Below, piece after piece: positions 16,589 to 20,340 of a stretch of DNA of 64,000 bases. The stretch lies in assembly GCA_003278855.1 (NCBI GenBank), contig QCCU01000006.1:1578-65577 (forward strand), read 5' to 3'. Each line of letters starts with the position of its first letter. Within the stretch, counting starts at the first letter, position 1. The position numbers and the translations under genes were made by a program. The notes beneath the pieces were generated by a model. The model did no database searches. It saw nothing but the letters and a program-made list of their open reading frames with translations, and was not told the DNA's origin. Origin of the DNA: Prochlorococcus sp. AG-347-M23 (GTDB taxonomy: Bacteria; Cyanobacteriota; Cyanobacteriia; PCC-6307; Cyanobiaceae).

Positions 16589-18175
16589 ATGAGTCAAATA
16601 ATTTTAAAAAAAGAAAGAGATCCTTCAATATTAATTTTGGATTTCGGATCTCAATATTCTGAATTGATTGCAAGAAGAATTAGAGAAACTAATGTTTTTT
16701 CTCTTGTAGTAAGTAATTACATTTCAATTGAGGAAATTAAAGATATTAACCCTAAAGGGATTGTTTTGAGTGGCGGTCCAAATTCTGTATATGAAAAAAA
16801 TGCTCCTAAGTGTGATGAAAAAATTTTTAATTTAGGAATTCCTATTCTTGGTATATGCTATGGAATGCAATTAATGGTCAAAGAACTGGGAGGATCTGTT
16901 ATGTCAGCAACCAAAAGAGCTGAATATGGCAGAGCACCAATAAGTATTGACCAAGAATCTGACCTCCTTTCTGATGTAGAAGATAAATCTATTATGTGGA
17001 TGAGTCATGGCGATTCTATTGATTGTTTACCTGATGGATTTAATAAAATTGCTCATACCGAGAACACACTCCATGCAGCAATTTCAAATGATGTAAAGAA
17101 ATTATTTGGCGTACAATTTCATCCTGAAGTTATTCATTCAGAGTTTGGGATGACGGTAATTAAAAATTTTGTTTATAAAATTTCTTGTTGTGCAGCGGAT
17201 TGGACAACCGACACCTATATAGAGGAAACTATTCCCAGGATAAGAGAGCAAGTTGGTAATAAAAAAGTTTTGCTTGCCTTATCTGGAGGGGTTGATTCTT
17301 CAACTCTTGCTTTTCTTCTTAACAAAGCTATTGGAAATCAGCTTACATGCATGTTTATAGACCAAGGTTTCATGAGAAAAGGTGAACCAGAGTTTTTAAT
17401 GAATTTTTTTGATAAGAAATTTCATATAAAAGTTGAATATATTAATGCAAGGGAAAGGTTTATTGCCAAATTAAAAGGTATTACTGATCCAGAACAAAAA
17501 AGAAAAATAATAGGTGAAGAATTTATTAGAGTATTTGAGGAAGAAAGCAATAGGTTAGGACCTTTTCAGTATTTAGCCCAAGGTACTCTTTATCCTGATG
17601 TTATTGAAAGTGCTGGTACTAATATTGATCCTAAGACTGGTGAAAGAATAGCTGTAAAAATAAAGAGTCATCATAACGTAGGTGGATTGCCAAAAGATTT
17701 ACAATTTAAATTAGTTGAGCCATTAAGAAAACTTTTTAAGGATGAAGTCCGAAAGGTGGGAGCTGCTTTAGGTTTGCCGGATGAAATTATAAAAAGACAT
17801 CCATTTCCAGGCCCTGGATTAGCTATAAGAATTTTGGGAGAGGTAAATAATGAAAAACTTGATTGTTTAAGAGATGCAGACTGGATAGTAAGAGATGAAA
17901 TTAAAAAAGCAGGACTTTACAATGATATTTGGCAAGCTTTTGCAGTATTACTACCTGTTAAAACTGTTGGAGTGATGGGAGATAAAAGGACCTATGCATG
18001 GCCAATAGTTTTACGTTGCGTATCAAGTGAGGATGGGATGACAGCGGATTGGTCAAAAATTCCTTTTAAGATTTTGGAGAGGATAGCAAATAGAATCGTA
18101 AACGAAGTAGATTCAGTTAATAGAGTTGTTTATGATATTACAAGTAAACCTCCTGGAACTATTGAGTGGGAATAG
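16589..18175 (+). CDS. guaA: GMP synthase (glutamine-hydrolysing)
   Basis: GICYGMQ, QFHPEV, SGGVDSS, C-terminal KPPGTIEWE. Confidence 0.98.
18160..18174 (+). repeat. Left att core (end of guaA)
   Basis: TATTGAGTGGGAATA followed by G, giving the TAG stop. Confidence 0.88.
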
Positions 18176-18394
18176 TTTATAGGGCAAGAATGTAGTTATA
18201 CACAAAAAATGCTGTTTGTTGTAAGTTTGTTCTGTAATTGATCTTAAAAAAATCACATTAATATTGAGTTTATAAAGCACCTATTTGTTGCCAGTTTTTT
18301 TGCGTCACTTTGTCATCGTTTTCACGAAAAAATCGTAAAGGGTCTTTGTTGTTTTATTCGGATAGAAATATTGCAATATTATTTTCTTCAAAAT

Positions 18395-19987
18395 TTATGA
18401 AACTAAGTTTTTATATTTCTTATTTTGATTAATGATTTCAATTGCAGGTTTAAGTAATTCTTTGTAGTTTTTCCAATTGCCAATCGATTTAGAATTTATA
18501 GGATAACGGACTTGAACGCTACTACGAGTTAAGACTGAACGTGAATTGAGGTGAGGTGACAGATATATATCTTCCCATTTCCAACCTATCCAAGAAATCA
18601 AGGATCTAATTTCTTTATGAGGATTGGTAACTAAAGAGTCATAATTTAGATCATATATTTTTGTTCTAAATCTATTTTTGTATTCCGTCATTATTCTTTC
18701 TTGATCTAAGTAGACTTTTGCGGAATCAGCAAGGGATGATGAGTATTCAATTCCCCTTGCAAAATGTGCTCGAAAAAGTGAAAGAATATTGTCTAAAGGA
18801 TTTCTAAAACAATGAATTATTTTGGCATTCGGTATTTTCTTAGCGATGATACCCGCATATTGATAATTTAATAAGTTTTTATTAGTTGTTATGTTGAATT
18901 TTTTATTAAAATCTTTAATCTTTTTCCAATAGTTTTTAGCGAGAGATAATGATTGATCACTTTTTTTACTATCTAAATATAATTCTTCTAGAATTTCAAT
19001 TTCACCTAAATCGTCAACATTAATATTCATACTAAGGATTGACTCTAACAAAGTAGAACCACATCTAGGCATCCCTACTATGAAAATACTCTGGGGATAT
19101 TTAATGTTATCTTCTTCAATATTTGTTATTTTATCAGATTCAAAAAGTAATGATTGAGATTTATTGAGTATTAACTCAGGTTTAGATGGATTAATACCAA
19201 GTTTTAAGTCATTCGCTAATAGTAAATTTTCTGCGCATTGATTGTAATTCTTTTCATTATGAAGAACATTTGCTCTTGCGAAGTAAATATCAATTTGATC
19301 TTTTTTTGATTTATTAATCAATATACTTTCTGAAAAGATATTTTTCTTCCATTTTTTATTTTTATTGGAATATTTCAGATTAGATATTGAAAAATATGCT
19401 CTTGCATAATCAGGATTGATTTCAATTGCCTTGAGACATGATGATTCTGCCTCTTTTAATTTTCCAAGATCTTTTAAAATCCCTCCCAAATTTGAATGAA
19501 ACATAGCAAAATTAGGATTTATTTTGATTGCTTTTCGGAATGCAATTTCTGCCTGATGTAAATTACCAAGGTCTCTTAACACATTTCCAAGATTGGTATA
19601 AGCATCAGCAAAACTAGAATTGATTTCAATTGCCTTTAGATAACAAAATTCTGCTTCTTTTAGTTTTCCTAGATCTTTCATTACATTACCAAGATTGAAA
19701 TGTGCCTTATAGAAATCAGGATTAATTTTAATTGCTTTGCGATAACAAAATTCTGCCTCTTTTAATTTTCCTAGACCTCTAAGTATGACTCCATAATTAG
19801 AAAATACACCATAGTCTTCAAATCCTTTATTGATGAAATATTGATAATATTTTGCTGCTTCTATAATATTTCCTTTTGAATGAAAATGAATTGCTTGATT
19901 ATATATTTGTTCTTTAGAAGTTTTAATTACTTTACTAATTTTTTCTTGTTTTTTATTTAATTTATTTTGATCTCCAAAACCTTTCAT
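18395..19987 (-). CDS. TPR-repeat sulfotransferase family protein
   Basis: MKGFG N-terminus, four well-conserved 34-aa TPRs, then IFIVGMPRCGSTLLE (5'-PSB) and RNPLDNILS (3'-PB) PAPS-binding motifs. Confidence 0.9.
   Translation of the reverse strand: MKGFGDQNKLNKKQEKISKVIKTSKEQIYNQAIHFHSKGNIIEAAKYYQYFINKGFEDYGVFSNYGVILRGLGKLKEAEFCYRKAIKINPDFYKAHFNLGNVMKDLGKLKEAEFCYLKAIEINSSFADAYTNLGNVLRDLGNLHQAEIAFRKAIKINPNFAMFHSNLGGILKDLGKLKEAESSCLKAIEINPDYARAYFSISNLKYSNKNKKWKKNIFSESILINKSKKDQIDIYFARANVLHNEKNYNQCAENLLLANDLKLGINPSKPELILNKSQSLLFESDKITNIEEDNIKYPQSIFIVGMPRCGSTLLESILSMNINVDDLGEIEILEELYLDSKKSDQSLSLAKNYWKKIKDFNKKFNITTNKNLLNYQYAGIIAKKIPNAKIIHCFRNPLDNILSLFRAHFARGIEYSSSLADSAKVYLDQERIMTEYKNRFRTKIYDLNYDSLVTNPHKEIRSLISWIGWKWEDIYLSPHLNSRSVLTRSSVQVRYPINSKSIGNWKNYKELLKPAIEIINQNKKYKNLVS
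19403..19810 (-). repeat. Four tandem ~102-bp TPR-coding repeats
   Basis: Units of the form xNLGxxL(K/R)DLGKLKEAExxxxKAIxINP; DNA similarity visible, e.g. TTCTGC(C/T)TCTTTTA(A/G)TTTTCC recurs; boundaries approximate. Confidence 0.85.
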
Positions 19988-20256
19988 TTTGACAAAAATT
20001 TATTAAGTTTTGAATATGATTATACCTAAATTGAAATTCCTATAAAACTGGATCGCTTATTGAGTAAGTCATGACTTGTTAACCGACGAAAAAGTTTATG
20101 ATGAAATCTATTTATGACTTGGGTAGAATTATCAAAGATTATCAGTTGCGATGATACAAAATTCTTACTTCGATTTGTTGTCAGTTTGTTGCGAAATTAC
20201 TTTATTAAAAGAAACCAGTAATACCAATCATTTTCAAGGAGTAAAAATGCTTTTTT

Positions 20257-20271
20257 TATTGAGTGGGAATA
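20257..20271 (+). repeat. Right att core (duplicate of guaA 3' end)
   Basis: TATTGAGTGGGAATA followed by A, so it reads ATT GAG TGG GAA TAA (IEWE-stop). Confidence 0.88.
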
Positions 20272-20340
20272 AAGTTTCAAATTTTAAAAAATAAAAGTTT
20301 TTATTTAAACCAGAAATTTTTAAATGAGATTTAAAAAGTA

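Follow-up and report, generated by a model that had tools for sequence, protein, structure and literature searches.

Organization of the guaA locus

At the 3′ end of guaA (the GMP synthase gene) in Prochlorococcus sp. AG-347-M23, the last codons of the gene recur 2,097 nt downstream and enclose a single cargo gene, a segment that the original prediction took for an integrase-less integrative mini-element. We examined it within the window (the whole 64-kb stretch of contig QCCU01000006.1 that was analyzed, to which all coordinates refer unless another locus is named) and by comparison with other genomes and metagenomes. Attachment sites are named as for phages: attL and attR at the ends of an integrated element, attP on its circular form, and attB on the empty chromosome. 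The locus contains the following features.

16589..18175, + strand: guaA, the target gene, whose last codons (IEWE plus stop) form the attachment core; GATase and GMP_synt_C domains, E about 1e-46
18157..18177, + strand: attL core, AACTATT-GAGTGGG-AATAGTT; the same 7-7-7 core occurs in many attP sites
18178..18330, + strand: left (P′) arm of the element; aligns collinearly with the attP of loci L124, L131, and L165 and of the element in genome G149
18395..19987, − strand: sole cargo gene, 530 aa, with four tetratricopeptide (TPR) repeats and a C-terminal sulfotransferase domain; TPR_1 E=6e-36, Sulfotransfer_3 E=3e-27
20174..20256, + strand: right (P) arm of the element; 11-mer class the same as in the left arm
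20254..20274, + strand: attR core, TTTTATT-GAGTGGG-AATAAAG; half-site TTTTATT identical to that of the integrase-bearing attP L165
20341..21054, + strand: PD-(D/E)XK/Cas4-like nuclease gene (domain match), the constant right flank of the hotspot, outside the element; adjoins the site in all relatives examined

The repeated sequence, TATTGAGTGGGAATA (15 nt, + strand), has two exact copies in the window (18160–18174 and 20257–20271) and no third copy there, even with up to two mismatches allowed. In shuffled sequence, 0.15 matches are expected at ≤2 mismatches, and two matches arose in 2 of 100 shuffles; an exact pair sitting on a gene end is much rarer than this loose figure. The left copy consists of the final four guaA codons (IEWE) plus the TA of the TAG stop, and the right copy reads ATT GAG TGG GAA TAA, again IEWE-stop, such that recombination between the two would give back an intact guaA ending in IEWE-TAA. 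A weaker likeness extends upstream of both copies (32 nt at 75%), and the 3′ flank of the right copy (AAGTTTCAAATTTTAAAAAA) is homologous to GTCTTCAAAATTTTAAAAAAA, which directly adjoins guaA in relatives with an empty site. Between the copies, the TPR-sulfotransferase gene is the only open reading frame (ORF) of ≥60 aa. No recombinase is present in the element, and a tblastn search with the backbone proteins of related autonomous elements (described below) yielded no match within it. The repeat and its spacing, the reading of the right copy, the single cargo gene, and the missing integrase are thus all as originally predicted.

Each end of the segment is more elaborate than a bare repeat. The attL core comprises a chromosomal half-site, AACTATT (18157–18163), the presumptive 7-bp overlap or crossover region, GAGTGGG (18164–18170), and an element half-site, AATAGTT (18171–18177), the last being a perfect inverted repeat of the first around GAGTGGG. 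The P′ arm that follows holds an imperfect inverted-repeat box, AGGGCAAGAATGTAGTTATAC (18181–18201), a tandem pair of 11-mers, GTTTGTTGTAA/GTTTGTTCTG (18214–18234), and a second such pair, TTTGTTGCCAG/TTTTTTTGCG (18284–18304), plus TCACTTTGTCATCG (to 18318), and it ends close to the position at which the integrase gene starts in autonomous relatives. On the other side, the P arm holds tandem 11-mers, TTTGTTGTCAG/TTTGTTGCGAA (20174–20195), a box, CCAGTAATACCAATC (20215–20229), and a T-rich spacer reaching the core. In the attR core, TTTTATT is the element half-site, GAGTGGG lies at 20261–20267, and AATAAAG is the displaced original end of guaA with its TAA stop. When an attP is rebuilt from the window (right arm to 20271 joined to left arm from 18175), it is collinear with the attP of L124, L131, L165, and G149 over ~300 nt at 61 to 65% identity; the alignment takes in all three 11-mer pairs (20174–20195, 18214–18234, and 18284–18304) and stops ~50 nt short of the point that corresponds to the integrase start codon.

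Two features that might have been separate were dropped. Four 102-nt tandem repeats (67 to 78% identity) at 19408–19802 lie inside the cargo gene and reflect its four TPR units at the DNA level. A small RNA encoded by the arms was considered and abandoned, as an Rfam scan of the window region and nine related loci returned no family matching the cassette ends, its only match being a Cyano-1 small RNA in one relative. A search of the same genome for the left-arm motif was uninformative, as the motif with two mismatches was matched as often as a reversed control; in IMG/VR, all that the left-arm pattern recovered was unrelated phage coding sequence lacking the core.

Empty and variably filled sites in related genomes

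The locus was compared first in 24 and later in 285 genomes belonging to the genus. In some, guaA runs straight into the PD-(D/E)XK gene; in others, unrelated DNA of 0.13 to 17 kb lies between the two. With a 400-nt probe across the empty site, the two are contiguous in at least 56 of the 285 genomes, a lower bound because diverged clades drop below the threshold. Where the site is filled, each unit is bounded by ATH GAR TGG GAR stop, and units stack up to five deep. In all, 63 core-bounded segments were delimited in 44 loci, a few of them divided by the loose core pattern: as a regular expression, this pattern cut some cassettes at spurious internal matches, and key counts were redone with a strict pattern.

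The cargo of these units is unrelated from one to the next. TPR-sulfotransferases and TPR-methyltransferases form the largest group; other units carry AT3-SGNH acyltransferases, trypsin-like and metallo-peptidases, HNH nucleases, an Mrr-helicase with a T5orf172 protein, FkbM-type and other methyltransferases, or remnants of DnaB-like helicases. Cargo homologous to the TPR-sulfotransferase of the window lies at guaA in six genomes (G186, G264, G060, G276, G016, and G082). Arms and cargo are also found in other combinations. Units of 130 to 250 bp consisting of the two ends alone occur in seven genomes (G003, G013, G018, G020, G021, G193, and G162); the arm class of the window is without cargo in G162 and has an FkbM-type methyltransferase as cargo in G249; and G186 has the cargo and right arm of the window with a different left arm.

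Several observations on these islands stand on their own. Fusions of TPR domains to enzymes lead the hotspot cargo overall (21 of the clustered ORFs), and a 12.5-kb guaA island in G082 (L068, 457–12965) has a run of at least four paralogues with TPR domains (623, 365, 513, and 481 aa). Integrase-less guaA units in G194 (L070) and G044 (L073) encode a DnaB_C helicase (E=3e-80), joined in G194 by a Sigma70_r4-like protein; they look like intermediate stages of decay or satellites that retained replication genes. In the complete genome G024, also from this genus, a Cyano-1 small RNA (RF01701, 61.8 bits, E=1.7e-8; L046, 10311–10379) lies at the distal end of a 9.5-kb guaA island, ~170 nt upstream of the PD-(D/E)XK gene; the window's own region has no such match.

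Integrase-bearing relatives

In Prochlorococcus sp. AG-355-P18 (G179), the same cores bracket 6.5 kb, with the gene for a 491-aa tyrosine recombinase (PF00589) at the start and that for a small serine recombinase at the end. Homologous integrases, 40 to 54% identical to one another, are present in 5 of the 285 genomes, all single-amplified genomes (SAGs): G179, G023, G215, G149, and G009. They lie ~200 nt behind the guaA core in four of the five and ~1 kb behind it in G009, with no tRNA nearby. The integrase is always in the guaA-proximal unit, and integrase-less cassettes come after it in G149, G215, and G009. The arrangement of guaA core plus integrase (again ~200 nt apart) recurs in Synechococcus sp. 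AG-679-A04 (a SAG) and in Cyanobium sp. NAT70 (a metagenome-assembled genome).

These autonomous units measure 5.6 to 10.6 kb and have a common backbone consisting of the integrase, a 216- to 266-aa HUH-like protein, a conserved protein of ~316 aa, and a resolvase-type serine recombinase (PF00239), often together with a 631- to 663-aa DUF5906/primase-like protein. The five integrases match only PF00589, the generic catalytic domain; neither an Arm-DNA-bind nor a P4-type N-terminal domain was detected in them at E ≤ 1, no AlpA-like ORF was recognized among the ORFs scanned in the elements, and no excisionase was recognized. Their matches among other Prochlorococcus integrases are distant (24 to 25% identity).

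The HUH-like protein has the motif G-[DK]-LH-[ILT]-HIL-[LM]-E (e.g., LHIHILMER) and a subthreshold match to replication-associated protein ORF2/G2P (L066, 3355–4155; L093, 3042–3692; L101, 3606–4373; L095, 3442–4200; L094, 3657–4340). As a putative Rep, it may replicate the small circles described below by a rolling-circle mechanism.

The core also turns up outside cyanobacteria. On predicted viral contigs of unrelated bacteria in IMG/VR (L176–L199, G+C content of 0.26 to 0.66), the IEWE-stop core marks guaA ends, which fits guaA as a general integration hotspot. A search of this database for the core pattern returned ends of guaA as well as predicted prophages, all from unrelated bacteria, and none of the stretches retrieved encodes a homologue of the integrase.

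Circular forms and attP junctions

A scan of metagenome assemblies with a profile of the integrase recovered 80 loci, whose G+C contents range from 0.29 to 0.54. In nearly all of them, the IEWE-stop core precedes the integrase by 178 to 322 nt, and many have DNA other than guaA ahead of the core. Eight contigs end in direct overlaps of assembler-k-mer size, as expected of circular molecules. One of these forms, a 5,607-bp circle, was recovered in three independent assemblies and encodes only the integrase, the Rep-like gene, the ~316-aa gene, and the serine recombinase.

Three junctions can be matched to integrated elements. Circle L119 (8,353 bp) is a circular permutation of the first integrated element of G215 (core-to-core length, 8,327 bp), with 96 to 98% identity; in L096, the right end of the G179 element abuts its left end (99% identity); and the attP rebuilt from the attL and attR of G149 reappears as the junction of L124, with 307 of 307 positions identical. 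Together, these correspondences document in nature, for the guaA element family, the conversion of attL and attR into attP, with the reservation that tandem identical copies could yield the same assemblies.

The comparisons that the original prediction had proposed thus all came out in its favor: empty sites in relatives, unrelated and often tandemly stacked cargo between core copies, integrase-bearing elements with the same core (five Prochlorococcus SAGs, one Synechococcus SAG, and one Cyanobium MAG), and attP junctions or circular forms in environmental sequence. Its claim that the repeats have the attL/attR geometry of site-specific integration is borne out by these empty and variably filled sites, integrase-bearing relatives, and attP forms.

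Architecture of the att sites

Across elements, attP is built in a constant order: a tandem pair of 11-mers, an imperfect inverted-repeat box, the core, a second box, two further pairs of 11-mers, and the integrase gene. The core is of the 7-7-7 type, with two inverted 7-bp half-sites around GAGTGGG in the attL of the window as in many attP sites. In one lineage of elements, the P side reads ATA and the element side TGA, against ATT and TAA on the chromosome, and these polymorphisms place the exchange, with the exact cleavage positions as we infer them, within GAGTGGGAG(T). This location agrees with GAGTGGGA, the reported cutting site of guaA-targeting integrases in Proteobacteria (PMC7775301; PMC9376610), which lies inside both copies of the window repeat (18164–18171 and 20261–20268).

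The 11-mers vary by lineage (TTTGTTGCG, TTTGTCACG, TTTCACGTG, TTTTACGTG, TTTCCCGTG, TTTCCCTCA, GTTACACGTG, TACCCCGTG, TTCCACA, and others) and are the same on both arms within one element. Concordance of the arms was tested on the 31 integrase-less cassettes of ≥400 nt that the strict core pattern delimits: P and P′ arms have a common string of ≥10 nt in 22 of them, compared to 17% of mismatched pairs (permutation p ≤ 2e-4). We take the 11-mers to be putative arm-type sites of a heterobivalent integrase. Since neither the element nor the genome around it has an integrase of this family, and relatives do, the window unit reads as a non-autonomous derivative with apparently complete attL and attR, of arm class TTTGTTG.

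Origin and mobility of the window cassette

We conclude, with a probability of roughly 0.85, that positions 18175 to 20271 of the window are an integrase-less cargo cassette belonging to a family of small picocyanobacterial integrative elements whose target is formed by the last codons of guaA. In the mechanism that we propose, autonomous members exist as circles carrying a lambda-style attP; recombination of attP with the chromosomal guaA end (attB, ...AACTATT GAGTGGG AGTAAGT...) would insert the element and rebuild the guaA stop codon from element DNA; and repeated insertion beside guaA would shift older units outward, yielding tandem arrays. The window unit was presumably inserted by the same route, given its complete attL and attR matching the attP of integrase-bearing relatives. 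It now amounts to the two att arms and one TPR-sulfotransferase gene, incapable of moving by itself, and if it still moves, an integrase of the matching arm class (TTTGTTG, as in G149/L124-type elements) would have to be supplied in trans.

That the cassette is still mobilized in trans today is a serious possibility, which we put at somewhat less than even odds. With similar reserve, we suggest that the guaA end serves as a cassette platform, on which integrase-less satellites with full arm sites are moved in trans by rare helpers of the matching 11-mer class, with more than 10 classes operating in parallel, amounting to an integron-like shuffling built from lambda-type att sites. Mobilization in trans is suggested by the complete and concordant arms kept in most cassettes of many classes, by the exchange of cargo within constant arms, and by the precedent of the GIsul2 integrase, which moves the integrase-less CR2-sul2.

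Several observations weigh against this account, in whole or in part. In the genome from which the window comes (93% complete), the search for integrases of the guaA family came up empty, so that no helper is at hand, and some of the window 11-mers are imperfect compared to those of autonomous relatives. Arms are discordant in 9 of the 31 cassettes, from which it follows that decay does occur. The nearest homologues of the cassette (G186 and G264) are 82 to 84% identical in nucleotides, versus 92 to 96% for the flanks, which gives no sign of recent transfer among what are species-level representatives only, too far apart for such a comparison. No circle of an integrase-less cassette was seen; the terminal overlaps of the circular contigs could in principle stem from tandem identical copies; and on short contigs, junctions between neighboring cassettes in arrays resemble attP. 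Lastly, the integrase profile found no homologue among IMG/VR viral contigs.

The strongest competitor, which we regard as a serious possibility somewhat short of even odds, is that the cassette is an inert relic: an integrase-bearing ancestor would have shed integrase and backbone genes through internal deletion or replacement, and what is left would be fixed in the guaA island, passed on vertically, and never excised. The absence of a cognate integrase and the greater divergence of the cassette than of its flanks would both follow, and decay evidently produces comparable objects, among them cassettes with only DnaB-like helicase or sigma-r4 remnants, the 9 of 31 with discordant arms, the arm-only minis of 130 to 250 bp, and the similar degenerate island remnants described in the tycheposon preprint (bioRxiv 10.1101/2020.12.28.424599). 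What speaks against a relic is how much has been kept: both arms, three 11-mer pairs, and both core half-sites are retained to ~50 nt before the start of the relatives' integrase, and among the 31 independent cassettes, which span more than 10 arm classes, 22 likewise have complete arms but no integrase, although random deletion would often take an arm. Moreover, arms of the same class are found with other cargo or none (G249 and G162), and GIsul2 demonstrates that such units can be mobilized in trans.

The remaining alternatives deny the repeats or the element integrases a role. Homologous recombination in the conserved flanks could swap the whole interval between guaA and the PD-(D/E)XK gene, with the repeats as by-products; this would suit a site that lies between two conserved core genes in all relatives, as well as mosaics such as G186, with the window's cargo and right arm and another left arm. 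We consider it improbable, because the core bounds each unit and not just the island as a whole, integrase-bearing units sit at the core and form circles that carry the predicted attP, and arm repeats are concordant within units. Equally improbable in our judgment is an integron-like mobilization of the cassettes by a resident housekeeping recombinase in place of the rare element integrases. The only PF00589 protein of the window genome, a 389-aa protein encoded outside the window on the minus strand of contig C1 (112393–113556; L051, 1426–2595) and 78 to 97% identical within the genus, resembles a housekeeping tyrosine recombinase and might be the resolvase of chromosome dimers. Such a protein is found in nearly all cyanobacterial genomes searched, it has a catalytic C-terminal motif in common with the guaA integrases, and cassettes are far commoner than element integrases (5 of 285 genomes); yet it is unlinked to guaA, its 43 to 47% identity across cyanobacterial families regardless of cassettes fits a housekeeping role, and it is lineage-specific integrase genes that the lineage-specific 11-mers adjoin. 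As for a chance recurrence of a short AT-rich sequence, the shuffles reach two matches (2 of 100) when two mismatches are permitted, but the match is exact, is placed on the guaA stop codon, and is found as the same boundary in dozens of units of other genomes; these comparative data rule it out for practical purposes.

Comparison with known systems

The 3′ end of guaA is an established integrase target in other bacteria (PMC7775301; PMC9376610), as the original prediction stated. The integrase of GIsul2 recombines at the guaA GAGTGGGA, and it also excises and integrates, in experiments, the integrase-less CR2-sul2 bounded by att copies (PMC9376610). Insofar as the sources consulted cover them, the guaA-associated islands and integrative and conjugative elements of Proteobacteria use P4-type integrases with an AlpA partner (PMC9376610; PMC7775301; Song et al. 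2012 as cited there). The picocyanobacterial elements resemble these systems in that the guaA 3′ end serves as attB and its crossover region contains GAGTGGGA, guaA-end direct repeats flank the insert, the gene end is rebuilt, circular intermediates occur, and integrase-less units are bounded by att copies, as is CR2-sul2. They differ in having integrases that match PF00589 only, without the P4 arm-binding domain, and in being 5.6- to 10.6-kb mini-replicons of picocyanobacteria without conjugation genes, which occur in arrays (up to five units), fall into more than 10 lineage-specific 11-mer classes, and carry cell-surface- or defense-type cargo in place of resistance genes. The window unit has the direct repeats, GAGTGGGA, and an empty attB in common with the GIsul2-like elements; it has neither a guaA-proximal integrase of its own nor the P4-type/AlpA pair.

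Within Prochlorococcus, the described tycheposons integrate at seven tRNA/tmRNA genes, with no mention of guaA (Hackl et al., bioRxiv 10.1101/2020.12.28.424599); these are the only sites named in the preprint, in line with the original prediction that known elements in this genus are mainly tRNA-targeted. The likenesses are considerable: both are small elements of the same host genus with a tyrosine recombinase, primase/helicase, and small serine recombinase; both insert in tandem beside the att site, pushing older DNA into the island and leaving degenerate remnants; and both occur at full length in environmental DNA. Here, the target is guaA, and integrase-less units with complete, matching att arms are not part of the preprint. 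The tycheposon gene set (recombinase plus replication module) is present in the autonomous guaA elements and absent from the cargo-only window unit.

Two further systems offer structural parallels. The lambda-type attP of heterobivalent integrases combines core-type sites with the arm-type sites P1/P2 and P′1-3. The guaA elements have the same inverted 7-bp half-sites around a 7-bp overlap (in the window, AACTATT-GAGTGGG-AATAGTT, within the 6 to 8 bp typical of the overlap), direct short repeats on both arms over ~250 to 300 bp, and an integrase gene beside the P′ arm; they differ in the strict pairing of the putative arm sites as tandem 11-mers, with a single pair on P and two pairs on P′. 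Integron cassette arrays and clusters of attC sites lacking integron integrases (CALINs) are similar in that one chromosomal site holds an array of short cassettes, most with a single gene and none with a recombinase, each of which ends in a recombination site, and in that cargo-free units exist. In contrast, the guaA arrays have no IntI and appear to recombine at a double-stranded 7-7-7 core with arm sites rather than at a folded attC, their platform is the end of a protein gene, and each cassette brings both attP arms.

Full-text searches of the literature returned no description of guaA-targeting elements in Prochlorococcus or Synechococcus. Integration at GAGTGGGA in the guaA 3′ end is known from Proteobacteria; the PF00589-only integrases of picocyanobacteria go together with a tycheposon-like backbone.

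Implications for picocyanobacterial gene exchange

Prochlorococcus is thought to acquire most of its flexible genes via tycheposons that target tRNA and tmRNA genes. The guaA locus adds a protein-gene-targeted seed of genomic islands, with an integrase family of its own that is common to marine and freshwater Synechococcus and Cyanobium, and hence a second route, besides tRNA-targeting elements, for the exchange of accessory genes in streamlined ocean cyanobacteria. Its att architecture, a 21-bp core with lineage-specific 11-mer pairs, is testable, and the att sites and integrases might become tools for site-specific integration in picocyanobacteria, which are hard to manipulate genetically. 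Taken alone, the window is a clear but ordinary instance; it is the family-level picture of integrases, circles, arm classes, and integrase-less cassettes that is of interest to marine microbial genomics. If the cassettes are truly mobilizable satellites, a rare helper could shuffle surface-modification and defense genes population-wide.

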